Below, in pieces: positions 1,963 through 15,736 of a DNA stretch of 64,000 bases (within the stretch, counting starts at the first letter, position 1; every line of letters begins with the position of its first letter). Where the stretch lies: positions 3,028-67,027 of the forward strand of contig CAVSDZ010000016.1 in assembly GCA_963726905.1 (NCBI GenBank), given 5' to 3'. The DNA comes from an uncultured Microthrixaceae bacterium. Its GTDB lineage: Bacteria > Actinomycetota > Acidimicrobiia > Acidimicrobiales > Acidimicrobilacustridaceae. Below the pieces are notes generated by a model. That model saw only the letters and a program-made list of their open reading frames with translations, was not told the DNA's origin and did no database searches. The position numbers were made by a program, and so were the translations under genes.

Positions 1963-2378
1963 GCACCGAGGCGTCGAGAATCGAAAGGCGCCTGCAAGCG
2001 GCCCGGTCACGCATCGACCGCGTGCCCGCCGACCGCTTGGCCCTGGAGGTCGCCGCCGGTGCCCTGGTGATCGACATCCGCCCAACATCGAATCGTGAGA
2101 CCGAAGGAGAACTGCCCGGGTCGATCGTGGTGGAACGAATCCACCTCGAGTGGCGCCTCGACGCCACCAGCGGTTCCGCGCTCCCAGACGCCTCCGACGA
2201 CCGCCGAGTGATCCTCGTCTGCAACGAGGGCCACGCCTCCAGCCTGGCCGCGGCCGACCTGCGTGAACTCGGTTTGTGCCGCGTGACCGATCTCGAGGGC
2301 GGCTACCGGGCCTGGCGCGACCTCACCGACGCCACACAACCCGCCCAGCTCACCTCCGAACCCCGACCAGAAGGCTGA
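1959..2378 (+). CDS. Rhodanese-domain sulfurtransferase
   Basis: This is the internal Met of ORF 1794..2378 (MSTEASRIERRL...). The active-site loop is VILVCNEGHASS and a C-terminal GGYRAW is present. It is translationally coupled to the upstream CDO-like cupin, a recurrent gene pair. Confidence 0.75.
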   Translation: MSTEASRIERRLQAARSRIDRVPADRLALEVAAGALVIDIRPTSNRETEGELPGSIVVERIHLEWRLDATSGSALPDASDDRRVILVCNEGHASSLAAADLRELGLCRVTDLEGGYRAWRDLTDATQPAQLTSEPRPEG

Positions 2379-2492
2379 CGCCATCTCTCGGGCTGATCAC
2401 CGGCCAAGTACGCGGCGAGCTTCATGAGCCAGGGCGGTCGCAACCACCCCGCCGGGGGCTCGGGTGTGAGCTGGAGGCAGCGTCTCGGCTTG

Positions 2493-3114: not shown

Positions 3115-3150
3115 CGCTGCCAGCTCGCCGCTTACCGGCGTCGGTCGGGC

Positions 3151-3490
3151 TCATTGGTGGGCGAACTCCTGGAAAGCCTCGAAGGCACGAGGGGCGTGGA
3201 CGGTACCGGGCCCGCCGTTCATGAGAATGGCGACGCCGAGCGCCTCGGCGACCTCCTCGGCCGTCGCGCCGCGTCGGGCGGCGCCGCGGGCGTGGGAGGT
3301 CACGCAGCCGTCGCACTGTTTGGTGACGGCGATGGCGAGCGCGATCAGCTCCTCGGTCTTGGCATCGATGGCACCGTCGACGAACACGGCGCCGCTCAGC
3401 GCGCCGTAGCCTTCGAAGACGCCGGGGATGCGCTCACGCAGACGCCCTCACCGATGGTCGTAGCTCGTCGAGGATGTCCTTGTGGGTCAC
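3151..3490 (-). CDS. Carboxymuconolactone decarboxylase / AhpD-like family protein (one frameshift near 3430)
   Basis: ORF 3151..3387 reads FVDGAIDAKTEELIALAIAVTKQCDGCVTSHARGAARRGAT, which contains the CxxC of the AhpD/CMD fold. The N-terminus (V)THKDILDELRP lies in the frame of ORF 3434..3712. The GTG at 3490 has AAGGAG 7 nt upstream. Confidence 0.75.
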
Positions 3491-3504
3491 GGTCTGGCTC
3501 CTTG

Positions 3505-3801
3505 TCAGGGGTGCGACGGCGACGGCGGCGCGCCGTCGATCTCGAAGAACAGGTCGTCGGCGTAGCACCACCACCAGTCCTCGCCCGGCTCGTAGGACCG
3601 GATCAACGGGTGGTCGGGGTGCGCGTGCCAGTGGGCGGTGGCGTGGCGGTTCGGGGAGTTGTCGCAGCAGCCGACGTGGCCGCAGTGCATGCACATCCGC
3701 AGGTGCACCCATCGGCCGCCGATGCGCAGGCAGTCCTCGCAGCCGTCGCTCGACGGCGTGACCTCGACGACGGTGTCGAGGTGGGTGCAGGTGTCAGCCA
3801 T
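3505..3801 (-). CDS. UBP-type zinc-finger protein
   Basis: This is the internal Met of ORF 3505..4038: MADTCTHLDTVVEVTPSSDGCEDCLRIGGRWVHLRMCMHCGHVGCCDNSPNRHATAHWHAHPDHPLIRSYEPGEDWWWCY. That is the classic Cys/His pattern of zf-UBP. Its ATG overlaps the stop of the upstream DUF5996 remnant. Confidence 0.7.
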   Translation of the reverse strand: MADTCTHLDTVVEVTPSSDGCEDCLRIGGRWVHLRMCMHCGHVGCCDNSPNRHATAHWHAHPDHPLIRSYEPGEDWWWCYADDLFFEIDGAPPSPSHP

Positions 3802-4038
3802 GATTGTGTGCTTCGTTCGGTCGGTCGAGGGCGTCGCGGTCCCAGCGTGCGGTGGTGGCGGCCGCTTGGTAGGTCGACTGCAGGAACTCGAGGAGGAGCC
3901 CGTCGGGGTCGTCGGCGGTGCGCACGAGCTCGTACGGGAGGACGAATTCGCCGAGGTCGTCGTTCCACCGGGCCCCGTCGCGGCGATGGCGGTGTCGCGG
4001 TAGGCGGGCGGCTCCGGGTAGGCATACGCGTAGAACAC
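3794..4038 (-). pseudogene. DUF5996-family protein, C-terminal remnant only (also one frame jump near 3975)
   Basis: The remnant reads FYAYAYPEPPAYRDTAIAA followed by WNDDLGEFVLPYELVRTADDPDGLLLEFLQSTYQAAATTARWDRDALD (ORFs 3505..4038 and 3794..4129). This matches the conserved C-terminus of DUF5996 proteins as I remember them. None of the three minus frames upstream (4040-4716) shows the expected ~230-aa N-terminal part. Confidence 0.5.
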
Positions 4039-4690
4039 TCCTTCTTTGCTGGTGTACTCGTAGCCCTCCTCGTTCTCGGTGGCGTCTTCCTGCTCGGCCG
4101 TCGCACGAGCGACAGCTCATCGTCGGCAAGTCCGGAGGGCTCCTCCGAAGATGCCTCGACGGTGACTAGTGAATCGTCGACCTCGACGACCACCTCTACC
4201 GTGCCAGCGACGACTTCCCACCAACGACCGCAACGGCGACTACCGCACTGCCGGCCGCGACGGTCCCCTCCACAGTTCCAAAGCCGGTTCCGACAGCGCC
4301 GCCGCCTCCCGCTGCACCTGCGCCCCACGCCATCAACGGCACGCAGTACCTGTTTGATGCGACCGCCAGCGTCAATGGCACATGGGTCACTGGTCAGGCC
4401 TGCTACGGACTCGGTGGGTTCTCCCGATATTGGACCCGGGACCCAAGCGGTCGTGCGCAATCAGTCTGGCACGGTCATGGGAACTACGGTTCTAGGCCCA
4501 GGAGTAGTGCAGACTTGGCCGGAGGTGGGGCCACTAGCAAGACGGTGTGTCTTCCGTTCTCCTTTGCGTCCGTCCCCGACTCGACCTTCTACTCCTTGAG
4601 GTGTCGCATCGAGGTCAGGTGCAGATGTCCAGGGCCGACCTTGCTGCGGCCGGCTGGCACGTGGAGATCCATCTCCAAGCGTCGTCGTAA
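4024..4690 (+). CDS. Membrane-anchored Ser/Thr/Pro-rich protein with a conserved-looking C-terminal domain (frame-broken; start codon unclear)
   Basis: A hydrophobic anchor FFAGVLVALLVLGGVFLLG (4042-4098) is followed by an S/T-rich linker. The rest is spread over all three plus frames: TTATATTALPAATVPSTVPKPVP...HAINGTQYLFDATASVNGTWVTGQACYGLGGFS, then IGPGTQAVVRNQSGTVMGTTVLGPGVV, then KTVCLPFSFASVPDSTFYSLEVSHRGQVQMSRADLAAAGWHVEIHLQASS*. The stop is TAA at 4688-4690. No ATG/GTG/TTG precedes the anchor in frame; there is only an ATA at 4024. Confidence 0.3.
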
Positions 4691-4715
4691 GGCCTGCACC
4701 CACATGACGAGGTCG

Positions 4716-6521
4716 TCATCCTGCAGGAGCAGGGCGCCCTCGATTTGTCCGGTTTCTTCCAGTAAAGTCAAACGCCCTGGCTTCCGCCGGGCATTCCCCG
4801 GCGGGGAGGTGTCTTCGACGTGGCCGGTCAAGCCTGAGACCTCAAAACGCCGGTAGTAAGGTGACGATATTGTGTCGTCAGTCACAGGAAATGGAATGGT
4901 CCTCGTGAGAGGCTTATCTTTACGATTGCAGTTCAGGGGGAGGAGAGCGTAGGTACCAGAACGGCAGGTGCCGTCTGACATCAGTCAATGGGTGCGACAC
5001 TCTCGGATGGACAGGAGGCAGGCCCTTCGCCGCACGAGTCACGTTCAGACGAGCGCAGTAGGGTTGGAAGAAGTGCTCACTTCAACACAACTCTGTGATT
5101 TGATTGCAGTAGGTGGAAATGGTGCTGCCGACGACCTTGCCGCTGCCACATACATCGGAACTGAAGCGATCGCATTTCACCCAGGGCCAGAGATAAGCCA
5201 ATCTGATGGGACATTCAAATGGCCTGGATGGGCGCAGCTGTTTCAGGTTGATCTGCAGACGCGACCGGTGGTGTGGTCGTGGAAGGTGAAGCTGTCGATG
5301 CTGAAGTGGTCATCGTCTTGGCGGCTGCGCTTGCACGCGAGGAGGTCGAGCGCTATCAGAGCGCCGATGAAAACCTTCTTTCGTGTGCGTCATTCGTCGC
5401 ATGGGCTGACGGGAACCTAAGACCACGATCTCGGGTGGCCGATGGATCCTTCTCTAGATCCCTCGTCGGCGTGTGCTTCGGCGGACTCGGGCTCGGGGAA
5501 CAGCCGCTCGGCGTCTCGACTGGCAAGGGGGAAGGCTGTGGCGGCGGCCACAGCATCCAGCGAGTCTGACCGTCGGCAGCGAAAGCCGGTGACCTTGTCT
5601 TCGGCGTGGCGCCTTGGGCGTGCTGCGGGCGTGGTGGTTTGCGGAATAGCGGGCTTCTGATTGTCGGGACCGGCCTGTCGAGGGATCGGTGCTCTGCGCG
5701 GAGACGCTTGGCGCTGTGGGTTCGATGCGCCGAGGCGGTTTGGGGTGTGGAAGGTGCGGTACGTCGGTGGCGCTGCTTCGCTGTCCGCGGCGACCAGTGG
5801 AGTCTCCCGCTGACTTCTGGAGTCCTGTTCGTTCTTGGTTTGCGGCCAGGGGGCGTGCTCCCATCATCGGGACCTACTGGTGACGCGCCCCTCGAAGGGG
5901 CGCCGTGGAAGGGCTGCAGGTCCATTCTCCGTCGCTGCTCTCGTGCTTCGTTCAAGCCCTCGCAAGCCGTCGAGGTGCTGGGGTGCGGTGGCCCTCTGAT
6001 GCGGATCCCTGGGCTGGAGGGACGCGCTGCTGTCACGCAATCGCGTACCCGCGGCGACGAGTCGGTCGCCCACATCGCCGTCCCAACGAGTTCGGATAAC
6101 TCGAGCCCGGTGATCATGGCGAGGCGCGTGATCGATGGGGGGAGCTGGGACCGGTTGGCAGCACAGGCGTCGCCGACGAGAACCGGAATGGGTGGGAGCC
6201 CACGGGAGATAGCTGTTTCGATCTCTCACGCGACGAAGTCCTCGGGGTCATCTAGTGGGCGCGCTCCACCCGCGTCCGCGACGGCAGCCCAAGAGGGGCC
6301 GATCAGGGCGATGAATGCGTCACACTCGCGAAGCGCGTTGTCGATCACGTCGGGGAAGTACTCCGACACGGATCGAATCGATGTCCATGAAGACCTCTTC
6401 GACACGTTGATCCGCACATAGGGTCTTATACAGCGCCAAGGCGGCACGTGTGGGTGTCCGATCGGCGATAGCTGATGAAGATACGGACACCCTGTCCGCT
6501 GGACGTGCCTTCGGTCGCCAT
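4716..6521 (-). CDS. TIR-domain / single-TM / Cys-rich ectodomain protein, paralog 1 (at least 8 frame jumps; possibly a decayed copy)
   Basis: The N-terminus is MATEGTSSGQGVRIFISYRRSDTHT, then ALALYKTLCADQRVEEVFMDIDSIRV, then SEYFPDVIDNALRECDAFIALIGPSWAAVADAGGARPLDDPEDFV, then EIETAISRGLPPIPVLVGD...LAMITGLELSE. These fragments are in ORFs 6320..7030, 6226..6558, 5356..6117 and 5864..6229. Next come the TM segment KKVFIGALIALDLL, the linker TTTPPVASA, and the ectodomain YLWPWVKCDRFSSDVCGSGKVVGSTISTYCNQ ... AKGLPPV ... SDGTCRSGTYALLPLNCNRKDKPLTRTIPFPV ... PPGEC. The gene is colinear with paralog 2 over its whole length. A 1-nt insertion relative to paralog 2 is directly visible (ACGTGCCGCC versus ACGTCCGCC). 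GC content is visibly lower at 4716-5420. Confidence 0.7.
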
Positions 6522-6645
6522 GCCCCCCATCCCCTCGGCAGACAATTGCGCGCCTCACGCCTCTCGGTGTTCACCGAACAAAGCGGCCTTCGAAATCGGT
6601 GAACATTGCCCCCCAAGGCGACGCCACGTGGGCGCGATGCAAAAA

Positions 6646-6675
6646 ACAGTAGGGCATCAGGAAGGCCTCTGCGAG
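6646..6675 (-). promoter_or_regulatory. Candidate promoter of TIR paralog 1 (-35-like CTCGCAGAGG block, -10 TACTGT)
   Basis: On the minus strand the sequence reads CTCGCAGAGG-14 nt-TACTGT...CGTGGCGTCGCC-96 nt-ATG. The same blocks, with the same 14-nt and 96-nt spacings, occur upstream of TIR paralog 2, where the -10 is TAATAT. Confidence 0.35.
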
Positions 6676-6999
6676 CGGTATCCGTGGGCCACCAGCCACG
6701 AGTCAAGGCGCACGCCTGTGGGGCCGGTACTTGCCAGGGGCACCCGACGAGGCCGTCCTGGTCGGTGATGGCGCCGTCCGGGTGGGTATTGCAGAGTGCG
6801 CATCGCGGACGCCCTCGCCCAGGCGCTGATCGACGCAAGCCTGCGGCGATGGGAGCGGTGCCTTTCCCGCAAGCCGCGAAGGGACGCTCTCGGGAACCTG
6901 CCGCGTCAATGTCGTCCCGCTCGGCACGTGTAAGACTGATGCGCTCCGCCTGCGCCGGCCCCACGGCTGCCGTGGGCGGAACGCGTTGGGGGGTGAAGC

Positions 7000-8758
7000 G
7001 TGGCCACACCGGACGATCCCGGCCGGTCATCGGCGCTCAAGACGACGGTGGCGATCGTCCTTGCCGTCATGGCATTCCTCCTGGGGCTGGTGGGCTACCT
7101 ACGAGCTGGCGGGCTCTCGCTCGCGAGCGCGGTCTACCGAAGTCTGGGACTGTTCACGCTCAGCTTCGATCCGCCACCCAATCAGACGGCCTCGGGCCTC
7201 CCGCTCACGCTGGAGATCGCCCGGTTCCTGGCCCCGGCCGTCACGGTCCTGGCCGCGGCAGCGGTCGCAGCGCGGGTGTTCCGAGACGAGTTCGACCGAC
7301 AGACCACCCGGCGGCGGGTCCGTGGTCATGTGGTGGTGTGCGGTTTGGGGTCGGTCGGCGCCATGGCCGCACAACAGCTGCGGGCTCAAGGTCGCCACGT
7401 CGTGGCGATCGAACGTGACCGGTCCCGACCATCGATCCCGGCCGCCCGATCCGCGGGCATCCCAGTCGTGGTGGGCGACGCCCGTGCAAGACAGACACTC
7501 CGACGAGCAGGTGTCGACCAGGCTGCCCACCTCGTGTGGTCGGCCAGCGACTGGGCCGACGGCCAGGCGGTGGTCGATTCGCTGGTCGACACGCTCAACG
7601 GCCGGTCTGAGAAACGACACGGGGCCCCACGCGGGCCCGGCGTGCCTGCTTGCACGGTACGCGATCTCGCGTTGTCCACCACCTTGCGTCTGCGGGCCCT
7701 GAGTCAGCACCCGGAGGCAACTTGGGGGCCCGATGTGGACTACTTCAACCTGGCCGAGAACACGGCTCAGCGTCTGCTGTGGAAGGTCACCCGGGGGTAC
7801 GCCCTCTTCGACGGCGGCCAGGTGGAGTTGTGGCTACTGGGCTCCGGACCGCTCGTCGAAGCACTGGTCGTCCAGGCCGCCCGAAACTGGTGGGGGGTCC
7901 CGTCCGACCACGCTCGGCCCACGCTGTTGTGGTGCATATCTTCGATGACGGCGCCACGAGTGCACGCGACCACCTCCTCGCCCGATGGCCTGAGGTCGCC
8001 GAGCGCGTGCTGCGTCGAGGCACACGACGGGCCACCTGAAGGAGCCCTCGAGGTCAGTCGGTCGACCGACGCGATCGGCGAGCCGCAGGGAGCCTTCGTG
8101 TTGACGGATGACCCGGAGCGGGCCGTGCACCTTGGTCTCCACCTCGCCGAGGAGACCGCGATTCCCATGTGGTGGTTGGCGTCGAGCCGGCAGCCGCGCC
8201 AAGGCTGGCCGCTCCTGACCTCTTGCTGTTCGACCCGGTCCGCTACGGCTTGGACAGTGACGTCCTGCTGTTCGACACCATGGACCTGCTCGGCCGGATG
8301 ATCCACGAGCGCTACCTCCAGAGCCGACTCTGTTCCGACGGCACGCTGGAAGCCGGAACCGACCCGTCCGATCCCGGCCACGAGTGGAGCGCGCTCGAGC
8401 CGCTGTGGCGTGCCTCCAACCGCGACGCGGCCCGCTTCATCGTCCCCAACCTCCAGGCCTCCGGCTTGCGCATTCGGCGCCTGAGCGGCCTCGACGATCT
8501 CATCGCCTTGGACGGAACCGACGCGATTGGCGACTCTGCGCTGGTCGACATGGCCACACGCGAGCACGAGCGGTGGCACCGGTTCATGACTGACCAGGGT
8601 TGGCGATTTGCTCCCGGCCCCGCGACGACGAGCAACGCACGAACCCCAATCTGCGGCCGTGGTCCGATCTCGGCGCCGACACACGCGGGTACACCGTGGG
8701 GGCGGTCAGCGAGTATCCACGCTTGTTGGCCCAGCTCGGTTACCAGATCTGCCGATGA
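7000..8758 (+). CDS. Channel-like membrane protein: 2TM K+-channel-type core lacking a selectivity filter + TrkA-N (RCK) NAD-binding domain + two RyR domains (at least 4 frame jumps)
   Basis: ORF 7000..8301 contains two TM helices (TTVAIVLAVMAFLLGLVGYL and LEIARFLAPAVTVLAAAAVAA) flanking SAVYRSLGLFTLSFDPPP, which sits at the pore-helix position but has no TVGYG. The TrkA-N signature is GHVVVCGLGSVGAMAAQQLRAQGRHVVAIERD...VVVGDARARQTLRRAGVDQAAHLV. The first RyR-like repeat is in ORF 8169..8912: MIHERYLQSRL...WSALEPLWRASNRDAARFIVPNLQASGLRI. The second is ATREHERWHRFMTDQGWRFAPGP followed, in a third frame, by RDDEQRTNPNLRPWSDLGADTRGYTVGAVSEYPRLLAQLGYQICR*. The stop is TGA at 8756-8758. Confidence 0.65.
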
Positions 8759-8814
8759 CGAATGGGTCCTCACCGAAGGGCAGAATCGCGCTGTGGGTTT
8801 TGTCGGGGGCAAGA

Positions 8815-9727
8815 TCATTCGGTGCTGTGTCGACGGACGCTCCACTGGGCCTGCTCCCGAGACAACGCCATCTCGACCTCATCGACGAAGCCAACCCAAG
8901 CCTCCTCGGTGACGATGTAGCGAAGTCCGATGGTGATTGTCGACAGGATCTGTGCGGTGCCCGCGTAGGAGTCGCCTAGAGACCGGAACTGGTTGCCGTG
9001 CAGCCAGGCGATCGACTGCCGCGTCCAAGGCGGCCGCGATGCAGAGGATGTCGACGTTGAACCCCAGCCCGACCGGTACCCTCAATGCCGCACCCACTAG
9101 ACCAGACGAAGTTCGCGCCCAGGGCCACGAGGCTCCACTGGCCGGCCCTCCGAAGGAGCAGCTTCGACTTTTCCCGGTACCACTCCTGTTGATCGCGGAC
9201 CGCCTCGAGATAGAGGGCTTTGCGCCCCTCGAGCGACCGGGTCCGCCTCGCGGATCGCGCGGGGTGATCTGCTCTCCATTGTCGACCTCGTCCCAGTTCA
9301 AATCATCGAAGCGGTCGATCGCGGCTTCGAGCTGCCCCCGGAACTCCAGGTCCACCTCCGAGGGGGACTTGCTGGAGCTAAATGGGGCCGCGGCCATGCA
9401 TAACGCCAGGCCAGCGCCTTGACCGCCTCGGCTCCGGCTCGTCCCCGGTGCCAGTTGTCCGCTGGCGCCTCCCGGGCGATGCGCCAGGCAAGCACCAGGG
9501 CAAGGCCGAACGCCACGAACGCCACGAACGGCCCGACGCGAAGGTCGCCCACCTCGAGATCGACGACTCCGCCGGCGGCGGCTACGACGAGCAGAGCCAG
9601 CTGCCAGCCCGTCTCATCCCAACGACCGCCTTTGCGACTCGACCGCCGCCGAGTCAGCAGCTCGATAGGCGGCCGGCAGATCCTCCGGGGCGAATCCCGG
9701 TTCGGGTAGGGCTGTGCCGGCTCCCAT
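8815..9727 (-). CDS. SLATT-family 2TM effector protein, double-module, paralog B (at least 3 frame jumps)
   Basis: The ATG at 9727 is preceded by GGAGGTGA. The stitched product reads MGAGTALPEPGFAPEDLPAAYRAADSAAVESQRRSL, then WDETGWQLALLVVAAAGGVVDLEVGDLRVGPFVAFVAFGLALVLAWRIAREAPADNWHRGRAGAEAVKALAWRYA, then MAAAPFSSSKSPSEVDLEFRGQLEAAIDRF, then SLEGRKALYLEAVRDQQEWYREKSKLLLRRAGQWSLVALGANFVW, then GAALRVPVGLGFNVDILCIAAALDAAVDR, then WLHGNQFRSLGDSYAGTAQIL...FVDEVEMALSREQAQWSVRRHSTE*. This gives two 2TM modules plus the DUF4231/SLATT-type Y..Q..WY signature. Confidence 0.6.
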
Positions 9728-9730
9728 CGA

Positions 9731-10655
9731 TCACCTCCGCGAGGTCACCCAGCTGCTCGTGCTCACGAGCGATGAGACGCTCGACCTCATCGACGTACAC
9801 GCTCCAGGCGTGGTCGCTCTGACGGTGCTGGGCAAGTTCGCGTATGAGGCTCAGTTCCCTGGCCAAGTCGGCGTAAACCCGGCTGAGGCTCTCGTGGTGG
9901 CGAACCCCCAACCAGCCGATTGCGGCACCGGCCCCGCCCGCCGCCAGGCTGACGACGACCGCGGAACCCTTGTCGGCCAGTCCATTGTCGACCACTAGGA
10001 AGAGTCCGGCGAGCACAGCCAACCCGGCCAGCACGTAGAACGCCAGGTCCCAGCGTTTGGCGGAGCGGGCGTTACGACCAGCCCGGGTTGCATACCACCC
10101 GAGCTGTTCAGTGACGCGTTCCTGGACATAGCGATCGCGCCGGCGATCCAAGGGCGCGGCATGGAGCGTCCGCATCGCGGCGGTGATCTCCCCCGAGGGG
10201 TCCGGCGCCGGCAGCGACTCGCGCTCTTCCAACAGCTGTGCCAGCCGCTCGACGAACAGCTCGTCGGCCTGCGCCTCGCTCTGGTGCGGCCCGTCGAACG
10301 GCAGGCCCCGAACCGCGTACCGCCACGACAGCGACTTAATCGCCTCCGCCGCCGCGCGACTCGTACCAGACAGCCTCCACGCGACTCAACCGCTGGACAA
10401 CCCGCAGGATTACCAGCAGCGAGCCCGCGGCGACCGCCAGCGCCCCCAGGAAGGCCAACCTCGGGTTGCCCTTGGCCACGGTGCCGACCGCGGCACCGAC
10501 CAACGGGAGCACCGAGCTGGGATCGGATCATGCGCAGGTACGCCGCCGTTGGGCTTGTACCGCCTGGGAGTCGGCAGCTCGACAGATCGCCGGCAGGCCT
10601 GCTCCGCTCAAGGCGCCCTCCCCTCAGCGAGTTGCGGACCCATCGCTGCGCTCAT
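9731..10655 (-). CDS. SLATT-family 2TM effector protein, double-module, paralog A (at least 4 frame jumps; as read, the ORF runs on to 9654)
   Basis: ORF 9654..10232 reads RRRDRYVQERVTEQLGWYATRAGRNARSAKRWDLAFYVLAGLAVLAGLFLVV...SLAAGGAGAAIGWLGVRHHESLSRVYADLA...VYVDEVERLIAREHEQ. The upstream stitched part is MSAAMGPQLAEGRAP, then GLPAICRAADSQAVQAQRR, then VLPLVGAAVGTVAKGNPRLAFLGALAVAAGSLLVILRVVQRLSRVEAVWYESRAAAEAIKSLSWRYAVRGLPF. It is colinear with paralog B. By analogy with paralog B's C-terminus (REQAQWSVRR), the true end is probably REHE.SWVTSRR*, with TGA at 9731-9733, one codon before paralog B's ATG. Confidence 0.6.
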
Positions 10656-10727
10656 CGACGTTCGTCCTCGCTCCCCACCGTCGTCGCCGGATCGTATGCG
10701 CGGAATCCAACCGGCGGCCTCGCTCCG

Positions 10728-10748
10728 CCACGCTCCCAAGTAGCGTGG
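10728..10748. promoter_or_regulatory. 7-bp inverted repeat CCACGCT-n7-AGCGTGG immediately upstream of the SLOG gene start, in the 98-nt SLATT/SLOG divergent control region
   Basis: Read directly from the sequence: ccacgct cccaagt agcgtgg, 5 nt before the ATG at 10754. It is a candidate operator or 5'-UTR hairpin. Confidence 0.3.
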
Positions 10749-10753
10749 CGGGC

Positions 10754-11548
10754 ATGGTCACACTGCCCGCGTCGACGAGCCCGAAGCGGTGGGCGCCGCC
10801 CTCGGCGAGCTGGGTGTCGTCGGGCCCCACGCCGTCGTCGTCGCCTTCGGGAGCGCCGCCGGTCTCACCGACCGACAGGCAGGGACCGTTGCCCGCTCAT
10901 CGAGCGAGCCCTGATACCGCTCTGCGAAGAACTCGGTGCCGCCATCGTGGACGGCGGCACCGACGCAGGGCTCATGCGACTGGTAGGGCGAGCTCGCACG
11001 GCGACGCACGCACAGTTCCCCCTCATCGGCGCTCGTCGGCGGGAACGATCGCGACCGGCAATCCGACGGTCTCGGACCCCGCGCGCCTAGAACCCAACCA
11101 CTCGCACATCGTCATCGTCCCTGGCACGGCCTGGGGGGACGAATCGCCGTGGCTCACCCGTGTTGCCCTCGAGTTGGCGCAAGGCCTTCCCATAGTCGGC
11201 CTGATGATCGGCGGCGGGCCGATCTCCCTGCGCGATGCAGTGAACCTCATCGACGCCACCTGCCCAGTGATCGCCATCGCCGGGACCGGTCGCCTCGCTG
11301 ACCAGCTCGCAACGCAAGGTACGGTCACGGATCCGACGCTCGCCCGACTACACGACTCTCCGCTTCTGCACCTGCTTGCCACCGCCGAACCGGAGCCGCT
11401 CGTCACCGCCCTTCGAGCACACCTGAGCGGCGACCACCAGCTAAATCAGTCCCTGCGCGGGGCTGCGCCACTTATCGAGCTGCTCGACGCCCTCGACCAA
11501 CCGCGCACCTCGAGGCCGCCCTTCATCGAGGCCGGGGACGAGCGCTGA
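10754..11548 (+). CDS. Stand-alone SLOG-superfamily protein, LSDAT (TRPM-type SLOG) prokaryotic-like; predicted nucleotide sensor (3 frame jumps)
   Basis: The stitched product starts MVTLP.., then VDEPEAVGAALGELGVVGPHAVVVAFGSAAGLTDRQ. ORF 10161..11090 contributes LIERALIPLCEELGAAIVDGGTDAGLMRLVGRARTATHAQFPLIG. ORF 10466..11548 contributes TIATGNPTVSDPARLEPNHSHIVIVPGTAWGDESPWLTRVALELAQGLPIVGLMIGGGPISLRDAVNLIDATCPVIAIAGTGRLADQLA. This is a Rossmann-type GGTD.G.M / GGG / G.GR.AD pattern as found in SLOG/LOG-like domains. Confidence 0.6.
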   Translation: MVTLPASTSPKRWAPPSASWVSSGPTPSSSPSGAPPVSPTDRQGPLPAHRASPDTALRRTRCRHRGRRHRRRAHATGRASSHGDARTVPPHRRSSAGTIATGNPTVSDPARLEPNHSHIVIVPGTAWGDESPWLTRVALELAQGLPIVGLMIGGGPISLRDAVNLIDATCPVIAIAGTGRLADQLATQGTVTDPTLARLHDSPLLHLLATAEPEPLVTALRAHLSGDHQLNQSLRGAAPLIELLDALDQPRTSRPPFIEAGDER

Positions 11549-11622
11549 CGGAGGCAGCATCGGCTCGACTGGTAAGTCCTCGACGGATCGAGGCACCAGT
11601 CAGTCAGGTTAGATTCTTGTCG

Positions 11623-13278
11623 TCAAGGCTTCGCGGCGATGTTGAGCCCCTCGACAACCGCCCGGCATTCACCTCGCGGCGTACTGTCTTGGACCTGACC
11701 TTCCAATGTGGAGGCCATGAAGCGCTGGGGCTCGGGTGACCAATTCGCGCCCGATACATGAAAAGTGACTGTCCGAGTGACCGGAAGGGCGCTGCCATTG
11801 CAGGAAACCGCGGTGTGGTGAGGGTAACTCCCGGACGAATTGCCATCGGAATAGCTAAGTGACGCCCAGGCAACCGGCGTGGTAACGGGTGGCAGGCCCT
11901 GTGCCACTCTGGCCCTGTTCACAATCGCCTTCTCTCGATCGAGATCTGGACCGTCGTTTATTGTGCAACCAGCCGGTCCGCACTCGATATCGAAGGTCAC
12001 GGAGGTAGCCTTGCCATTGCCACACACATCAAGACCGAAGCCCTCGCACGTCGCGAAATTACCCTCCCCCGACCAGGTGGACGGGACATCCCACCAGTAG
12101 TAGACGGGCGACAACTTCTTCAAGTCAGATGCCGAGGCAACTGGTGGAGTGGTGGTCACGGAGTCCGTCGCCGCTGAACCCGTCGTGGTTGAGGTTGTCG
12201 CTGCCTGCACGGCCAGGCCCGCTCCGAGTAGTCCGAGGACTGCCACGGCGCCGATGACGACCCTAAGTCGCTTCCCTCTCGGGGCGTCGGTAGACGGGCC
12301 GCTGAGGACGATCTCAGGGCCGTCGCTAGATCGCTCCCCATATCCTGTGCCGGCGTTGACGCTGATCCGCTCGGCAGTATCGGCCTCGCTGACTCTCCGC
12401 AGCCACGACTGATTCCGGCCAAGGCCTTTGGGCGACGGGCCCAGCATCCTGTGAGTCGGTTTCAGACACGCCCTTCCGGCGACCAACGCCAGGGGCGGGG
12501 CTTGGTGCTAGCCCTGTGATGCTGATCGCTGGCGTCTCGACCTCCCTAGGCCCCTCCACATGAGGATCGTGCGGCCGGGTAGTCGTGCCAGGTGCGACAG
12601 CTGCCGTCGGGCTGACCGCAGGGTGGCGGCTCGGATCGGAGCGACCCACGGCCGGCTTGTCTGGTACAGGCAGGGCGACGGAATCAGGTGGCAGTGCTTC
12701 CTCTAACTCATCAGTGATCTCGGTTGGGTTGGAGTAGGGATGCGCGGGTTCGACTTCCGTCGCCGGGTGGAGGGTGGCGGAGCTCTGTTGCTGACTTCGC
12801 AAGCGCGTCACGGCCGCAACTAGCCGGTCGATATCGGTGTCCCAGCGAGTCTCGGAGACCTCGAGGCCGTTGATCATGGCCAAGCGCGAGATGGAAGGGG
12901 GGCTGGGCCCGGTTGGGCACACTGGCGTTGCCAACGAGCACTGGAATGGCTGGCACACCAAGGGACAGAGCCGTCTCGATCTCCAAGCGCACGAAGTCCT
13001 CGGGGTCGTCCAGGCGCCGAGCTCCACGCGTCCGCGACGTCCGTCCACGAGGGACCGATCAACGCGATGAAGGCGTCACACTCACGAAGCGCGCTATCGA
13101 TCGTGTCGGGGAAGTACTCCCCGACACGTATCGAATCGATGTCCATGAACACCTCGTGGACTCGGTGATCTGAGCACAGGGTCTTGTACAACGCCAAGGC
13201 GGACGTGTGGGTATCCGAACGCCGATAGCTGATGAAGATACGGGCGCCCTGACCGCTGGACGTGACTTCGGTCGCCAT
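11623..13278 (-). CDS. TIR-domain / single-TM / Cys-rich ectodomain protein, paralog 2 (3 frame jumps, all in the cytoplasmic half)
   Basis: ORF 12874..13509 gives MATEVTSSGQGARIFISYRRSDTHTSALALYKTLCSDHRVHEVFMDIDSIRVGEYFPDTIDSALRECDAFIALIGPSWTDVADA. ORF 12711..12992 gives RLDDPEDFVRLEIETALSLGVPAIPVLVGNASVPNRAQ. ORF 12326..13048 gives PPSISRLAMINGLEVSETRWDTDIDRLVAAVTRL plus a P/S-rich linker. ORF 11623..12486 gives PRGKRLRVVIGAVAVLGLLGAGLAVQA (TM) and then YYWWDVPSTWSGEGNFATCEGFGLDVCGNGKATSVTFDIECGPAGCTINDG...VSCNGSALPVTRTVTFHV...PRGECRAVVEGLNIAAKP*. The basic residues lie on the N-terminal side of the TM, which places TIR inside and the Cys-rich domain outside. Confidence 0.75.
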
Positions 13279-13400
13279 GCCCCTCCCTCCCCCCTCGGCC
13301 GACCATCGCAGCGCGTCAGCCGCCAACTGGTCCGCCGACAGAGCAGCAGGCGAATCGATGGGCAATGGCCTCGGGCGACGCCACGCAGGCTCGCGTCGAA

Positions 13401-13430
13401 ATATTAGGATGAGATGTAATCCTCTGCGAG
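13401..13430 (-). promoter_or_regulatory. Candidate promoter of TIR paralog 2 (-35-like CTCGCAGAGG block, -10 TAATAT)
   Basis: On the minus strand the sequence reads CTCGCAGAGG-14 nt-TAATAT...CGTGGCGTCGCC-96 nt-ATG(13278). This is the same architecture as upstream of paralog 1, and it is the only AT-rich patch in the 310-nt gap after the WD40-like gene. Confidence 0.35.
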
Positions 13431-13587
13431 TGGGACTCCTGACTCGCCCATGTCTGCTTGAGGCTCGGGCAATTGGGTGCCAACGAATTGAACAGGCGCC
13501 GCCAGTCACGGCCGAGCGGGCCGACGCGTATCTCGGCGCTCGGCCATGATCCCGTTGTTTACGCGAGACCTCGGTTCGCAGTCCACG

Positions 13588-14778
13588 TCATTGAGGACCG
13601 CCCGCCGCCGGTCCCGATCCCGTCCCGATGGAGAACAGTTCGACGATGCCCGGACTGGAGCTGACCGCGAACACGCGAGTTGTCGACCGACATCGAGATC
13701 CTCATGGGCCGGGGCGGGAGCGGCTTGCGGCGAGGGGGCCGCGGGGCCGGACCGCCGCGACGCCGACGGCGGGGCGGTCCGAGGGCCGGGCCTCGTGACC
13801 GGCCGGGGTGCGGAGCGGCCGGCGAGGATCTCCCCGGTGCGCCAGTTGACGACGAACCACCCGCGGCTGATGACGGCGGCATGATCGCCGTGGACGTCGA
13901 GGTGCGACACGGTTCCGGGAAGGGCGATAGTGGGGCCGAGCCGCTCGCCGGTGCGGACATCGAACGACTCGATGAAGCCGCTCCGTCCGATCACGAGGTC
14001 GTGGGCGCCGGAGAACGACACCGCCTGCATCGGATAGCGGGACAACATCTCCGGGATCCCGACCGGTAAGGCGTCGGCGGTGCGCCACATCCTGTTGGTC
14101 GTGGGCCACCGCGGGATCGATCGGGAACCGACGCCACTCATCATCGGGGAAGATGTGGAACCCGCCGTTGACTTTCACGATCCCGTCGGCGGGAATCATG
14201 TTGCGGGTCAGGGACCGATTGTGGCCGGGGACGAAGAAGAAATGAGCGCCGTCGTCGTCGAAGGCGACGTCGGCCGCCATGGCCCCCACCGGCGACGTCC
14301 TCGACAGCTGGGTGAAGCCACGAACGTCCCAGACCGAGACACCACCGGACTTCAGCACGGCGAGATGGCTGCCGGTCGGACTGAGGCACGGTCGGGCGTT
14401 CTGGGCCTGAAGTCCGGGCACGACCCCGTCCACCGCCAGAGCGCACCGAGCCCACTCCCAGCACCACATCGACGCGTTGAGGCCGGTGCCGGTCAGGAAC
14501 CTCCCGTCGCTCGAGAAGGCGAGAGCCCACACGAAGCCGTCCATCCTGAGGTGCGCCAGCATGTCGCCGGTGGCCAGGTCGAACACCTCGACCACGCCTC
14601 GGTCGTTCCCGGTGGCGACGACCCGGGCCTCGGGATCGATGGCCAGGCCACCGACGCCGCCTTCACCGACGGTCCACGTTCGGACCGGTTCGGGACCGGC
14701 TGGGGACTCGTCGAACCGTCGGACGTCGACGACCGGGATAGGGAGGGCGAATGGGGCCGAGGGTGAGTTTGGGCTCAT
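13588..14778 (-). CDS. WD40-like beta-propeller repeat protein (at least 3 frame jumps; 3' end uncertain)
   Basis: The gene starts at the ATG at 14778: MSPNSPSAPFALPIPVVDVRRF...GGLAIDPEARVVATGNDRGVVEVFDLATGDMLAHLRMDGFVWALAFSSDGRFLTGTG...LSPTGSHLAVLKSGGVSVWDV (ORF 13702..15510). It continues as AVSFSGAHDLVIGRSGFIESFDVRTGERLG...HLDVHGDHAAVISRGWFVVNWRTGEIL (ORF 13506..14144). The last blade reads SVDNSRVFAVSSSPGIVELFSIGTG, with stop TGA at 13588-13590. Confidence 0.55.
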
Positions 14779-14829
14779 GGACCAGCATTTGTTAGGCCGG
14801 GCCGAGGCGCTGTCAAGGCCCCCAAGCCG

Positions 14830-14861
14830 TTGCTTCCCTTCGGGAAGCAAGAATTTCTTGC
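14830..14861. promoter_or_regulatory. Two overlapping, mutually exclusive perfect hairpins/palindromes in the divergent WD40 / PIN control region
   Basis: The first is TTGCTTCCC-ttc-GGGAAGCAA (14830-14850). The second is GCAAGAA-t-TTCTTGC (14847-14861). They share GCAA, so only one can form at a time. Alternatively the region may be a composite operator. Confidence 0.35.
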
Positions 14862-15037
14862 GGGTCCCCTTAGCCCCCACTCCCCCACTGCGAACGGTGC
14901 TCACCCTTGCAGCTCGGTTGCAGTCACCCCTCCCCCGTTCCGGGGTCAGACGCGAGCCTCGCACGGTCGAAGCCGTGAGGTAGTCGGGCGGACGCGTCCG
15001 CCAGGCAATCTCCCGACCGGTGGAACCTCTGCGGGTG

Positions 15038-15468
15038 ATGTTGGACTCGAACGCGTTCAACTCGCTCGTGTGGGACGACGAGGCGATCAGGTCGCGGGTC
15101 GAGGCCGCGGTCGCGGCTGTGCTTTGGTGCTGGTGACCACGACCATCCAGATCGACGAGAACGACCGAACCCCCGACAAGGCGAAGCGTCTCGGGATTCA
15201 ACAGATCCCGGTGACGGGAACGCCAGCGCCCTTCGTAATCGATGTCTCTCGACTCGACGCATCGGTCCTCGCGTCTGACGATGAAGCTGCGGTCTACGAA
15301 CAGTTGATAATCGGCAACTCGAAGCACGCCGAGGACGCCGCGATCCTGATCGCGGCGCGGCGTGAGGGCATCCCGCTGGTCACGAAGGAAGCGCGGCTCC
15401 TGAAACAATGCAAGTGCCACGGGGTGGTCGGAATGACTCCCGCGGACCTGCTCGCGCTGATTCCATGA
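15038..15468 (+). CDS. PIN-like nuclease domain protein (putative toxin-like; one frameshift near 15120)
   Basis: The ATG at 15038 opens MLDSNAFNSLVWDDEAIRSRVEAAVAAV. The frame of ORF 14830..15468 then gives LVLVTTTIQIDENDRTPDKAKRLGIQQIPVTG...SKHAEDAAILIAARREGIPLVTKEARLLKQCKCHGVVGMTPADLLALIP. An N-terminal MLD.N plus a C-terminal D/E-A.I.A.A...G..LVT.(D/E) arrangement is typical of PIN domains. No cognate antitoxin is evident. Confidence 0.4.
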
Positions 15469-15469
15469 A

Positions 15470-15736
15470 CTAGCCGACTGGTACGGGTCGCCTATCGAAC
15501 TCGAGGCCACCGGATCCGGACCGGCGGACCCGGATCGCCAGCGCCGGTCCCCTGTCGAGCGGTGAAAGCCACGCCGGGACCGACAGGCCCTCAGGGAACG
15601 CGTCGTCGTGATCGGATGCGACGGTGAGGACCCCGGTCAAATCGCCGTCGCCGTCGGTCGGAGCGAGAACGGCGAAGACCAGGCCCAGGTCTCGCCCGTC
15701 GAGGTGGAGAGTTCCCATTGTCACCTGTTGCCGCAT
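15470..15736 (-). CDS. Hypothetical small protein (88 aa)
   Basis: This is an intact ORF with high GC3, convergent with the PIN-like gene (stops 2 nt apart). It reads MGTLHLDGRDLGLVFAVLAPTDGDGDLTGVLTVASDHDDAFPEGL... and I recognise no family. Confidence 0.3.
   Translation of the reverse strand: MRQQVTMGTLHLDGRDLGLVFAVLAPTDGDGDLTGVLTVASDHDDAFPEGLSVPAWLSPLDRGPALAIRVRRSGSGGLEFDRRPVPVG

Follow-up and report, generated by a model that had tools for sequence, protein, structure and literature searches.

According to the accessible part of Yirmiya et al. (2025, 10.64898/2025.12.03.692087), Thoeris type VII combines a TIR protein with the SLATT effector ThsH, which responds to the canonical cADPR signal, and type X combines a TIR protein with an ion-channel effector, ThsK. 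In the same part, the SLOG domain of ThsA is reported to bind 3'cADPR, and 'SLOG and 4TM' is listed as a putative Thoeris effector from Streptomyces sp. GKU 895 and Ca. Nitrospira nitrosa, two such systems having shown no defence in E. coli (Table S2). In 2026 preprints, phage RyR domains were found to bind or cleave 2'/3'cADPR and cADPR (PMC13232231; 10.64898/2026.06.04.730250), RyDEP being a cADPR-isomer glycosidase (PMC13232231). In animals, the MHR1/2 region of TRPM2, which corresponds to LSDAT, binds ADPR (PMC13143021).

The window, i.e. the whole stretch of 64,000 nucleotides analysed, contains a copy, broken by many frameshifts, of a rare bacterial cluster that nevertheless recurs and is composed of TIR, SLOG, two SLATT and TrkA_N-RyR genes (Table 1). 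The original prediction held that no system of this composition had been described. That was only partly right: TIR plus SLATT, TIR plus ion channel and the putative 'SLOG and 4TM' are published, and the parts absent from what is accessible of that preprint are the host RyR-domain channel and the separate LSDAT SLOG. Compared by description with the accessible part of the source, the locus resembles type VII in linking TIR to a SLATT protein expected to permeabilize the membrane upon a TIR-made messenger. Unlike type VII, in which SLATT itself is proposed to bind cADPR, it has two 4-TM paralogues with SLATT_3 and SLATT_1 domains, a membrane-anchored TIR and, as likely sensors, the separate SLOG and the RyR-domain channel. 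It shares with 'SLOG and 4TM', again by description, a SLOG coupled to a multi-TM protein beside TIR, and the window SLOG has SLATT_3-LSDAT_prok fused relatives (P0048, P0073 and proteins of loci L004 and L030). In the window's clade, however, SLOG and SLATT are encoded by separate genes transcribed divergently, and the TrkA_N-RyR protein is present as well, together with a SLATT of another subfamily. As described for type X, the partner of TIR is a predicted ion channel in the effector role, here a GsuK-like protein with a 2-TM pore and tandem RCK that ends in a RyR Repeat12-like domain and always has SLATT alongside.

The RyR region belongs to Pfam PF02026 and has a Repeat12-like fold and a His..Trp ligand motif, as do RyDEP and RyR Tad, small and soluble proteins with which phages counter defence by cleaving or sponging cADPR isomers (PMC13232231; 10.64898/2026.06.04.730250). 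Because the window RyR is host-encoded, tandem, channel-fused and devoid of the RyDEP catalytic Asp, unlike those proteins, we predict a sensing rather than a hydrolytic role for it. Foldseek searches with a homologue model relate the remainder to GsuK, MthK and TrkA, with a 2-TM pore-loop module that precedes tandem RCK domains harbouring the dinucleotide-binding GxGxxG motif; the (S/N)F..PP stretch in place of TVGYG and the extra RyR domain set it apart from them. As in animal TRPM2 (ADPR-gated) and ryanodine receptors, homologous ligand-binding modules are linked to membrane permeability, but bacteria have these modules either as small proteins of their own or attached to an unrelated pore, with no TRP or RyR pore.

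Domain organization and integrity of the genes

With frame-stitched translations, significant Pfam matches were obtained for TIR_2 (twice), LSDAT_prok, SLATT_3 plus SLATT_1 (twice) and TrkA_N plus RyR, and the same families had already appeared in raw-frame scans before stitching. The six genes, with the positions, strands and domains initially proposed for them, are thus borne out, and the proposed divergence of the tandem SLATT genes from the SLOG gene holds for the SLATT-A/SLOG pair. The observation underlying the original prediction is confirmed, and its interpretation as a whole is partly supported.

Table 1. Features of the locus, in window coordinates
Feature	Position	Strand	Domain matches
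TIR1, heavily disrupted paralogue of TIR2	4787..6521	-	TIR_2 1.8e-10 (Pfam, stitched translation)
TrkA_N-RyR channel-like membrane protein	7012..8758	+	TrkA_N 2.4e-14, RyR 9.5e-8 (Pfam)
SLATT-B, beta subfamily, 4-TM	8827..9697	-	SLATT_3 1.7e-35, SLATT_1 1e-18 (Pfam)
SLATT-A, alpha subfamily, 4-TM	9734..10640	-	SLATT_3 1.6e-27, SLATT_1 3e-23 (Pfam)
Stand-alone SLOG, LSDAT_prok family	10759..11548	+	LSDAT_prok 2.8e-56, 190 bits (Pfam)
TIR2: TIR_2, linker, TM helix, C-terminal domain	11626..13278	-	TIR_2 4.1e-11 (Pfam)
WD40-like beta-propeller ORF, directly upstream of TIR2	13702..15510	-	Sub-threshold matches (Pfam)

Both TIR proteins begin with the TIR domain, which a long linker of low complexity (~200 residues in TIR2) connects to a single hydrophobic helix (RLRVVIGAVAVLGLLGAGLAVQAA in TIR2); the C-terminal domain that comes next has ~210 residues and no Pfam match. 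In TIR2 this domain contains Cys and is predicted to be extracellular. TIR2 retains the catalytic-Glu motif FVRLEIETAL. Many TIR_2 proteins with periplasmic-type C-terminal domains, namely TolB-like, SBP_bac_3, TonB_C and GDPD, share 45-50% identity with its TIR domain. The initial label of SARM1-type TIR was not upheld, as only generic TIR_2, a weak PADLOC ThsB1 match (2.4e-8) and a weak NCBIfam ThcB4 match (48 bits, far under the 220-bit cut-off) were found. No PADLOC v2 model matched the SLOG, SLATT or channel proteins.

The channel-like protein, with Pfam scores of 54 bits for TrkA_N and 32.6 bits for RyR (cut-off 27.4), ends in a double RyR repeat. Only one RyR stretch is reported by Pfam; the second of the two RyR domains originally called is a more divergent repeat visible in the family alignment and likewise in the ~190 columns aligned by Foldseek between a homologue model and RyR3 Repeat12. 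We also obtained direct sequence matches to RyR1 and RyR3 Repeat12, down to 8.9e-11. The AlphaFold2 model of the intact homologue P0123 (pLDDT 85.7) yielded TrkA (3e-7), GsuK (3e-6, up to 524 columns) and RyR3 Repeat12 (3.5e-5) in Foldseek searches. Homologues are 47-63% identical to the window protein, and all 18 invariant and all 38 near-invariant family positions are kept in the latter. The proposed link between RyR and NAD-derived messengers has gained experimental ground from the phage RyR domains (PMC13232231; 10.64898/2026.06.04.730250). The H..W ligand motif is present in both repeats; in the window's clade, however, both lack the RyDEP catalytic Asp equivalent and have Asn in place of the phosphate-binding His, and the ligand may therefore differ. 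The GxGxxG-plus-acidic motif of the RCK is invariant. The selectivity filter is degenerate, the (S/N)F..PP stretch that replaces TVGYG being conserved, which makes K+ selectivity unlikely.

Judging from their sequences, SLATT-A and SLATT-B are anciently diverged 4-TM paralogues. SLATT-B clusters with the SLATTs of L084, L087, L093 and L091a and with the second SLATTs of L088 and L089 (42-50% identity) and is 27-31% identical to the alpha subfamily, to which SLATT-A, whose SLATT_3 and SLATT_1 domains were also detected by NCBIfam, is 41-51% identical. Alpha SLATTs go with stand-alone SLOG genes and beta SLATTs with TrkA_N-RyR genes, and loci with two SLATTs carry one of each. The window SLOG, whose closest homologue is 52% identical, keeps all 26 invariant family columns. 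Among prokaryotes, LSDAT_prok SLOG corresponds to the MHR1/2 region of TRPM, and comparison with the animal TRPM type gave an LSDAT_euk match at 2.5e-11.

All six genes are frame-disrupted, with many indels of 1-2 nt. Because such disruptions are spread over the whole window and also split housekeeping genes (ABC_tran of pstB, HisKA/HATPase_c of a sensor kinase, and further split HSPs at about 25.85, 35.7, 37.85 and 62.9 kb), most of those in the locus probably stem from errors made in assembling the source contig. By rough count, their density is nevertheless ~1 per 300 bp in the locus versus ~1 per 700 bp in native genes, so some real decay is possible. Frameshift-aware alignments revealed four frameshifts in the TrkA_N-RyR gene (7921, 7995, 8164 and 8610), five in SLATT-B, four to five in SLATT-A, where an apparent in-frame stop is a pair of compensating shifts, and two in SLOG (10873 and 11034). 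In TIR2, at least two frame events fall in the TIR domain (13026 and 12911), and the linker has one or more besides. TIR1, 79% identical to TIR2 over ~600 nt, leader included, is interrupted by ~16 frame changes and, immediately ahead of the catalytic Glu (FVA*EIETA), by an in-frame TGA at 6228. With damage far above that of the other genes, it is probably a true pseudogene. Both predicted TIR_2 domains are present, but as TIR1 is very probably dead, the window has at most one usable TIR gene.

The best beta-propeller/WD40 Pfam match of the ORF upstream of TIR2 is 1.7e-9, and its similarity to the propellers of TIR proteins in related loci is generic only; it is a possible accessory gene of uncertain membership. 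The window copy itself lies in a segment of lower GC that is adjacent to a tRNA and includes a recombinase fragment, a placement typical of acquired accessory or defence DNA.

Recurrence in other genomes

The gene set was found again in independent genomes, with varying gene order. A SLATT gene adjoins TrkA_N-RyR in all 10 close-clade loci, six of which have SLOG and six TIR; the four without TIR and the four without SLOG are counted within the sequence at hand, several contigs being short. The window's pair of SLATT paralogues is found in four loci. L001 shows the window's order, TrkA_N-RyR(+), SLATT(-), SLOG(+), with a channel homologue 54-68% identical over its full length and a TIR gene 5.6 kb away. 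In L083/L084, a TIR-TM-propeller gene lies beside a SLOG-SLATT-TrkA_N-RyR operon; L088 and L089 encode TIR-TM-propeller, SLATT, TrkA_N-RyR, SLATT and SLOG, and L091 TrkA_N-RyR, two SLATTs and SLOG. P0165 is a TIR_2-TrkA_N-RyR fusion. This recurrence, together with the SLATT-SLOG and TIR-TrkA_N-RyR fusions, supports the proposal that the four gene types belong together. The LSDAT_prok-SLATT neighbourhood itself was reportedly recognized by Burroughs and colleagues in 2015.

The neighbourhood census points the same way. Across the 82 SLOG loci, 21 of the 29 TIR ORFs are within 2 kb of the SLOG gene, corresponding to a density of 6.9 versus 0.8 per 100 kb, i.e. an ~8-fold enrichment (Poisson P = 3.8e-13), and TIR and SLOG often share an operon (L051, L023, L081 and L004). 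No TIR ORF was detected within 10 kb in 54 of the 82 loci, and in some TIR-less loci other Rossmann-like regions are fused to SLATT. Membrane-anchored TIRs, the arrangement foreseen by the original prediction, recur beside SLOG/SLATT as TIR, one TM helix and then WD40 or CHASE2, the propeller being on the TIR protein itself. From locus to locus, the TIR partners are no orthologues of one another: TIR-TM followed by the domain without Pfam match in the window, TIR-TM-propeller (L083, L088 and L089) or TIR-SIR2 (L001 and L090), the latter adjoining an nSTAND-WD40 gene and, like it, resembling Avs genes. Some of these partners may therefore be parts of independent systems next door. Most of the loci come from filamentous cyanobacteria and Actinomycetota, where they lie amid genes that are mostly metabolic rather than known defence genes.

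Proposed mechanism and alternatives

We lean towards regarding the locus as a copy of a rare, recurrent multi-gene Actinomycetota system that uses Thoeris-type TIR signalling with sensor-effector modules that are split and doubled. Most likely, it signals in a Thoeris-like manner through an NAD-derived messenger and has a new kind of effector; beyond its composition, we infer the following steps. An envelope trigger would activate the TIR protein, with its catalytic domain in the cytoplasm and its variable domain outside the membrane, and the TIR domain would convert NAD+ into an ADP-ribose-derived messenger. This messenger would be read by SLOG, partnered with the alpha-type SLATT, and also, via RyR, by the channel protein, partnered with the beta-type SLATT. 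The SLATT proteins and the channel would then breach or depolarize the membrane, causing growth arrest or cell death, and the RCK domain, with its dinucleotide-binding motif kept, may additionally report NAD(H) loss.

The same signalling logic might instead serve physiological or developmental transduction in filamentous bacteria rather than anti-phage defence, a distinctly less probable reading but one of some weight. An extracytoplasmic sensor domain (WD40 or other beta-propeller, CHASE2 or the window's domain) would report an envelope or extracellular cue via TIR, and the messenger would gate ion flux or regulated cell death. The large C-terminal domains of the membrane-anchored TIR partners, including the known extracellular sensor CHASE2, fit this reading, as do the large periplasmic-type family of the window TIR, the taxonomic distribution, the metabolic neighbours and the lack of PADLOC matches to the effectors; conflict/signalling systems of this kind are also enriched in multicellular prokaryotes (PMC7159879). 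It is countered by the characterized bacterial TIR-plus-SLOG, TIR-plus-SLATT and TIR-plus-channel pairs, all anti-phage in the accessible part of the source (10.64898/2025.12.03.692087), by the segment in which the window copy lies and by the Avs-like neighbours in L001 and L090.

It is unlikely that the TIR genes are stand-alone NAD+-depleting effectors or parts of adjacent systems, co-located through defence-island clustering and making no signal for the others, with the SLOG/SLATT and RyR-channel/SLATT pairs sensing another nucleotide, or the NAD(H) level via RCK. The TIR-SIR2/nSTAND-WD40 genes are plausibly a separate system, and the non-orthologous partners, the SLOG loci without nearby TIR, the Rossmann-SLATT fusions and the invariant RCK motif, together with the binding of NAD and ADP by GsuK (PDB titles), agree with such independence. 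Against it stand the sharp TIR peak near SLOG, the shared operons, the direct TIR-TrkA_N-RyR fusion and the experimental links of RyR, SLOG and SLATT to TIR-made ADPR derivatives in other proteins. We consider it improbable that the window copy is a decayed relic and its RyR protein a RyDEP-like, signal-degrading off-switch rather than an effector. The frame changes in every gene, the state of TIR1 and the glycosidase activity of RyDEP are in its favour, but the relic hypothesis is weakened by the same kind of damage in pstB, the sensor kinase and other native genes, even though TIR1 is probably truly decayed. The conserved residues of SLOG and of the channel are intact, neither RyR repeat has the catalytic Asp, and fusion of RyR to a pore and RCK module suggests gating rather than soluble hydrolysis.

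Composition and setting of the gene cluster

The original prediction, drawn from the DNA alone, had placed two TIR genes, a stand-alone SLOG gene, two SLATT genes and a gene for a TrkA_N-RyR channel-like protein between 4.7 and 13.3 kb of the window. The frames of these six genes were stitched with homologues as guides and X-joined before the Pfam scan. After this correction hmmscan recovered all the claimed TIR, SLOG, SLATT, TrkA_N and RyR domains with significant matches, confirming the genes with their coordinates and strands, as well as the divergent transcription of SLATT-A and SLOG. The unedited frames already yield SLATT_3, SLATT_1, DUF4231, TIR_2, TrkA_N and LSDAT_prok, and the quoted motifs are visible in six-frame translations.

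Features of the window, with coordinates, strands and Pfam matches (E-values) or remarks
Feature	Coordinates	Strand	Pfam matches or remarks
TIR1	6521-4787	-	TIR_2 1.8e-10
Channel-like protein (TrkA_N-RyR)	7012-8758	+	TrkA_N 2.4e-14, RyR 9.5e-8
SLATT-B	9697-8827	-	SLATT_3 1.7e-35, SLATT_1 1e-18
SLATT-A	10640-9734	-	SLATT_3 1.6e-27, SLATT_1 3e-23
SLOG	10759-11548	+	LSDAT_prok 2.8e-56
TIR2	13278-11626	-	TIR_2 4.1e-11
WD40-like beta-propeller ORF	15510-13702	-	directly upstream of TIR2; sub-threshold Pfam matches only
Serine-recombinase fragment	~16155-16476	+	end of Resolvase domain and Recombinase domain; 1.5 kb from tRNA-Met
tRNA-Met	17987-18063	-	boundary of lower-GC segment
UPF0182-like membrane-protein gene	18.2-21.2 kb		frame change near 19.2 kb
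Long ORF, high GC3	21278-23272	-	same frame as next ORF, one stop codon between
Long ORF, high GC3	23276-24127	-	
pstC/A/B-like, phoU-like, sensor kinase and regX3-like genes	33000-39500	-	phoU-like and regX3-like genes intact

The SLOG, SLATT and RyR-channel genes sit between TIR1 and TIR2. The whole cluster belongs to a segment of lower GC content (1-18000), which ends at the tRNA-Met gene; GC amounts to 62-70% in the first 18 kb of the window versus 70-76% from 20 kb onward. No att-like repeat of the tRNA-Met region of 12 nt or longer was found elsewhere within 1-18 kb. In related loci, a WD40 domain or a beta-propeller forms the C-terminus of the TIR protein itself, and in the window there is a separate WD40-like ORF. 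We considered that this ORF might be a split-off piece of such TIR-WD40 proteins and rejected the idea, as its similarity to their propellers is only that of generic WD40 repeats.

Frame changes were counted by frameshift-aware protein-to-DNA alignment. The TrkA_N-RyR gene has four frameshifts (at 7921, 7995, 8164 and 8610) and the SLOG gene two (at 10873 and 11034), with 4-5 events in SLATT-A, five in SLATT-B, and two inside the TIR domain of TIR2 plus at least one more in its linker. An apparent nonsense codon in SLATT-A is explained by two compensating frameshifts and was discarded. TIR1 accumulates approximately 16 events and an in-frame stop at 6228 within FVA*EIETA, right before the catalytic Glu; its event density is about one per 100 nt, versus one per 300-700 nt elsewhere. 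Of the two TIR genes, both with a TIR_2 match, TIR1 is probably a genuine pseudogene.

Frame changes also affect housekeeping genes between 23000 and 64000, in the native part of the window, where the ABC_tran domain of the pstB-like gene is divided over two frames and a senX3-like kinase has HisKA in one frame and HATPase_c in another. Tblastn searches with proteins from other loci similarly gave split HSPs at ~25.85, 35.7, 37.85 and 62.9 kb. Since native, housekeeping genes are split too, indel errors or erosion appear to be contig-wide rather than the mark of locus-specific decay. The stitched proteins look constrained by the sequence comparison, with 26/26 invariant family columns kept in SLOG and 18/18 invariant and 38/38 near-invariant columns in TrkA_N-RyR. 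We infer that most indels arose as assembly errors, in a draft contig that probably derives from a metagenome. The ORF at 7069-8298, including its out-of-frame tail, is present in the database as a called protein (P0121). Between the UPF0182-like gene and the pst-type genes, the two long ORFs in the table may represent separate genes or a single interrupted one.

The TrkA_N-RyR protein

This protein family is rare: an exhaustive HMMER search of 1.84 billion representatives with the RCK-RyR segment as query yielded 79 clusters at E <= 1e-3, 12 of them at E <= 1e-10, and a metagenome scan with a TrkA_N-RyR profile provided only three further loci. We analysed its fold using the AlphaFold2 model of P0123, an intact homologue (pLDDT 85.7, pTM 0.82). 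In the model, a TM helix (16-37) is separated by a short helix (43-54) and a loop from a second, long TM helix (71-107); two Rossmann-like domains and then two helical RyR repeats follow. Foldseek searches of the PDB with this model returned TrkA tandem-RCK rings as top hits (3e-7), then the GsuK channel, also as an NAD-bound entry (3e-6, alignments of up to 524 columns), and human RyR3 Repeat12 (3.5e-5, ~190 columns). The model and these hits, with the TrkA_N match of the window protein, show the two-TM, pore-loop and RCK layout of the GsuK/MthK type. In the family alignment, the pore helix is K+-channel-like and the K+ selectivity filter T-V-G-Y-G is absent, with (S/N)F..PP in its place as part of A-x-Y-x-x-L-x-L-F-T-L-(S/N)-F-x-x-P-P; the GxGxxG motif of the first RCK domain is invariant.

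The RyR match of the window protein reaches 32.6 bits for a Pfam cut-off of 27.4 bits, and its second repeat matches the crystallized Repeat12 constructs of RyR1 and RyR3 by sequence alone (phmmer, 8.9e-11 to 1e-6). Proteins with RyR domains from phages either cleave 2'cADPR, 3'cADPR and cADPR or bind them at nanomolar affinity, and their His..Trp pocket is common to animal RyR Repeat12 (PMC13232231; 10.64898/2026.06.04.730250). A His..Trp pair, which would correspond to H75/W78 of the phage anti-defence protein RyDEP, is invariant in repeat 2; in repeat 1 the pair is His..Tyr. As mapped by alignment to RyR1, the position of the phosphate-binding His (H100) is Asn in the window clade, and that of the catalytic Asp (D117) is Thr in the second repeat and Asn in the first. 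The Asp of the RyDEP-type His and Asp dyad is missing from both repeats in the window clade; more distant relatives in the family have an equivalent, (E/D)YDR. Without this acid residue, and attached to a pore, the RyR domain more likely serves to sense its ligand than to degrade it.

We then looked at gene neighbourhoods in the close clade, i.e. proteins with 47-63% identity to that of the window. L001 has the same arrangement as the window, TrkA_N-RyR(+), SLATT(-), SLOG(+), with a TIR-SIR2 gene 5.6 kb upstream. In L083/L084 (L083 3892-11779) a TIR-TM-propeller gene(-) precedes a SLOG, SLATT, TrkA_N-RyR operon, and in L088 (331-11279) and L089 (311-11353) such a gene is followed by three accessory genes, SLATT(-), TrkA_N-RyR(+), SLATT(+) and SLOG(+). 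The order is TrkA_N-RyR, SLATT, SLATT, SLOG in L091; SLATT(-), TrkA_N-RyR(+) in L087, L092 and L093; and TIR-SIR2, nSTAND, WD40, SLATT fragment, TrkA_N-RyR in L090. Including the window, an adjacent SLATT gene is found in 10/10 loci of the clade, a SLOG gene in 6/10 and a TIR gene in 6/10. Linkage of TIR genes to SLOG, SLATT or RyR-channel genes is seen repeatedly, in L001, L083/L084, L088, L089, L090, L051, L023, L081 and L004.

P0165, a more distant family member of 753 residues encoded at L085 10001-12262 and L086 4660-6921, is a single polypeptide in which TIR_2 is joined to a two-TM pore-like module, to TrkA_N and to a pair of canonical RyR repeats. We asked whether other family members of ~750 residues are TIR fusions as well and rejected this, since all ten that were checked consist of TrkA_N and two to three RyR repeats, without TIR.

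A conserved accessory module occurs beside SLATT, TrkA_N-RyR and SLOG genes in many of the related loci (L083 11787-15417, L085 12265-18727, L087 1-6975, L088 3386-6924, L089 3350-6899 and L002 1023-4899). It comprises a ~210-residue protein, a DZR zinc-ribbon/8-TM membrane protein and a sedolisin-like peptidase (Pro-kuma_activ and Peptidase_S8), homologous between loci; no homologues of these proteins were found in the window.

SLOG, SLATT and TIR partners

The SLOG protein is a stand-alone LSDAT_prok protein (190 bits for a cut-off of 25.4 bits, with a weaker LSDAT_euk match of 2.5e-11), whose nearest relatives are at most 52% identical. In TRPM channels the LSDAT family has its homologue in the MHR1/2 region, and in TRPM2 this region forms an ADPR site (PMC13143021). 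We collected 82 loci coding for SLOG homologues, mostly in cyanobacteria with a few in Actinomycetota, and screened them by local jackhmmer. A SLATT ORF is present within 10 kb of SLOG in 59 of them, and within 1 kb in 55. TIR ORFs are found within 10 kb in 28/82 loci, and 21 of the 29 such ORFs start or end at most 2 kb from the SLOG gene. TIR ORFs are enriched close to SLOG, with 6.9 TIR ORFs per 100 kb at 0-2 kb versus 0.8 at 2-10 kb (Poisson P = 3.8e-13, to be read with the caveat that many loci come from related Nostocales, so that the events are not independent). This proximity holds across two phyla and several gene orders. L051, an actinomycete MAG, has a SLOG-SLATT-TIR operon (9896-12711), and SLATT_3-LSDAT_prok fusions occur as P0048, P0073 and in proteins of L004 and L030. 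On plasmids, tblastn found no match to either the TrkA_N-RyR or the SLOG protein.

The SLATT proteins form two subfamilies, alpha and beta, with 27-32% identity between them and 40-80% within each. Wherever a locus has two SLATT genes, one is alpha and the other beta, and because the window genes also fall in separate subfamilies we rejected a recent duplication as the origin of the pair. An alpha SLATT is found in L002, a locus with SLOG but without the RyR channel, and beta SLATTs in L087 and L093, which have the RyR channel but no SLOG. This distribution suggests two sensor-effector pairs, SLOG with the alpha SLATT and the RyR channel with the beta SLATT.

Some SLATT proteins encoded beside SLOG harbour extra domains (L026 10803-12200, L006 6384-9620, L027 8663-9934); in these loci the screen detected no TIR ORF of its own. 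One has a Phage_lysozyme domain, and the others have a Rossmann-like region with the motif ADLSxxNANVFYELGIRHA and no Pfam match, possibly a TIR/deoxyribosyltransferase-like domain; the L006 protein also carries a TPR-S domain.

TIR1 and TIR2 are paralogues, with 79% nucleotide identity over ~600 nt, including ~115 nt upstream of the start. TIR2 consists of a TIR_2 domain, a Pro/Ser/Ala-rich linker of ~200 residues, one hydrophobic helix and a Cys-containing C-terminal domain of ~210 residues. By eye, its FVRLEIETAL motif corresponds to the catalytic-Glu motif W-V-x-Y-E-I of ThsB-type TIRs (Table S1 sequences); in TIR1 the stop codon falls just ahead of that Glu. The basic stretch GKRLR before the hydrophobic helix is consistent with a predicted N-in, C-out topology. 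Pfam has no match for the C-terminal domain, the hits examined, related loci included, contain no homologue of it, and its single-sequence AlphaFold2 model is unusable (pLDDT 40.7). The TIR domain itself shares 45-50% identity with a very large number of TIR_2 proteins with periplasmic-type C-termini (TolB-like propellers, SBP_bac_3, TonB_C, GDPD, WD40).

A similar layout is found among the TIR partners of related loci, in the order TIR, TM, beta-propeller (L083, L088, L089) or TIR, TM, WD40 (L004, L051, L081). Cyanobacterial SLOG neighbours include proteins of 1000-1460 residues in which a tandem array of three TIR_2 domains precedes one TM helix and either WD40 repeats or CHASE2, an extracellular sensor domain. 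Three-TIR_2 proteins are encoded at L014 12609-16856 and L033 5946-9080, with similar ones in L015, L019, L039-L042, L061, L064, L067 and L082. At L001 (1-5235) and L090 (1651-6979), the nearby TIR gene codes for a TIR_2-SIR2_2 fusion and is followed by nSTAND1 and WD40 genes in an Avs-like set, which may be an independent system adjoining the SLATT and TrkA_N-RyR genes.

Known systems and a candidate mechanism

The cluster is probably a variant Thoeris-like TIR signalling system, for which neighbouring configurations have already been published. In PADLOC v2.0 the TIR proteins received only a weak ThsB1 match (2.4e-8), and no model matched the SLOG, SLATT or TrkA-RyR proteins. NCBIfam detected generic SLATT domains, with the type III Thoeris component ThcB4 at 48 bits for a 220-bit cut-off. 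In the 2025 Thoeris survey, TIR with SLATT (type VII) and TIR with an ion channel (type X) are already described, and the putative effectors listed include 'SLOG and 4TM', for which no defence was seen in E. coli; the text and tables searched do not mention LSDAT, RyR or TrkA. Our literature search found no paper joining RyR with SLATT, LSDAT or 'SLOG domain', and the Thoeris-RyR papers retrieved concern only phage anti-defence proteins. LSDAT and SLATT were reportedly defined by Burroughs et al. in 2015, a work that may show some of the same neighbourhood. Compared with the literature searched, the new elements are a RyR-domain channel encoded by the host, a free-standing SLOG, a fixed pair of SLATT paralogues and TIR generators of the transmembrane-receptor type. 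Composition and linkage are strongly supported. The description of the composition as undescribed holds for only part of the system: the host RyR-domain channel is new to the literature searched, and the type VII and type X combinations are not.

Thoeris TIR proteins produce ADPR-derived messengers. According to 10.64898/2025.12.03.692087, ThsA binds 3'cADPR through its SLOG domain, canonical cADPR acts on the SLATT effector of type VII, and the type X effector is an ion channel. These facts, with the phage RyR data and the conserved linkage, lead to a four-step model as the best supported. A membrane-anchored TIR generator would make a messenger, which two readers, the LSDAT SLOG and the RyR repeat, would detect; two kinds of membrane effectors, SLATT pores and the RCK channel, would respond, and membrane integrity or potential would be lost. 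Through its dinucleotide site, the RCK domain could in addition respond to the drop in NAD(H) caused by TIR activity. Starting from domain content and linkage, we infer the remainder of this Thoeris-like model and hold it to be somewhat more probable than its negation; the mechanism is plausible and better grounded now than when the original prediction was made. We are more tentative about a bolder reading, in which TrkA_N-RyR would be an ion channel gated at its Repeat12-like domain by a TIR-made ADP-ribose derivative, beside the LSDAT SLOG sensor and the SLATT pores and downstream of TIR receptors sensing extramembrane events; this is possible, at less than even chances.

The same mechanism might instead belong to physiology, as a pathway that senses the envelope, and have no role in defence against phages. 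This main rival, which we find rather unlikely, draws on the extracytoplasmic location of the sensor domains, on neighbouring genes that are mostly unrelated to defence and on a restriction of the loci to filamentous lineages. That the TIR genes are independent NADase systems merely co-located with the others appears improbable, given their proximity to SLOG in two phyla and the TIR-channel fusion P0165. We give still less credit to a combination of a dead relic in the window and a RyR protein acting as an off-switch enzyme, since the stitched SLOG and channel proteins retain their invariant columns and the RyR repeats lack the RyDEP Asp.

If the Thoeris-like reading with a RyR-gated channel holds, it describes a new class of TIR effector and sensor, a channel read through a ryanodine-receptor Repeat12 domain, and the first host-side, rather than phage-side, use of RyR domains in TIR immunity. 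Whether cADPR-type messengers act directly on Repeat12 is an old question of animal physiology, for which the protein would offer a small bacterial model. The system would be a prokaryotic forerunner of cADPR-to-ryanodine-receptor and ADPR-to-TRPM2 signalling, and would bear on the origin of SLOG gating in TRPM channels. Its TIR enzymes would be wired as transmembrane receptors, following the logic of Toll-like receptors; to our knowledge, such TIR enzymes have not been characterized in bacteria. A host-side RyR-domain channel linked to TIR genes, as predicted here from sequence and a structure model, would surprise specialists. The window copy is a poor experimental substrate, and the intact orthologous loci L083/L084, L088 and L089 are preferable; their existence makes the idea directly testable.
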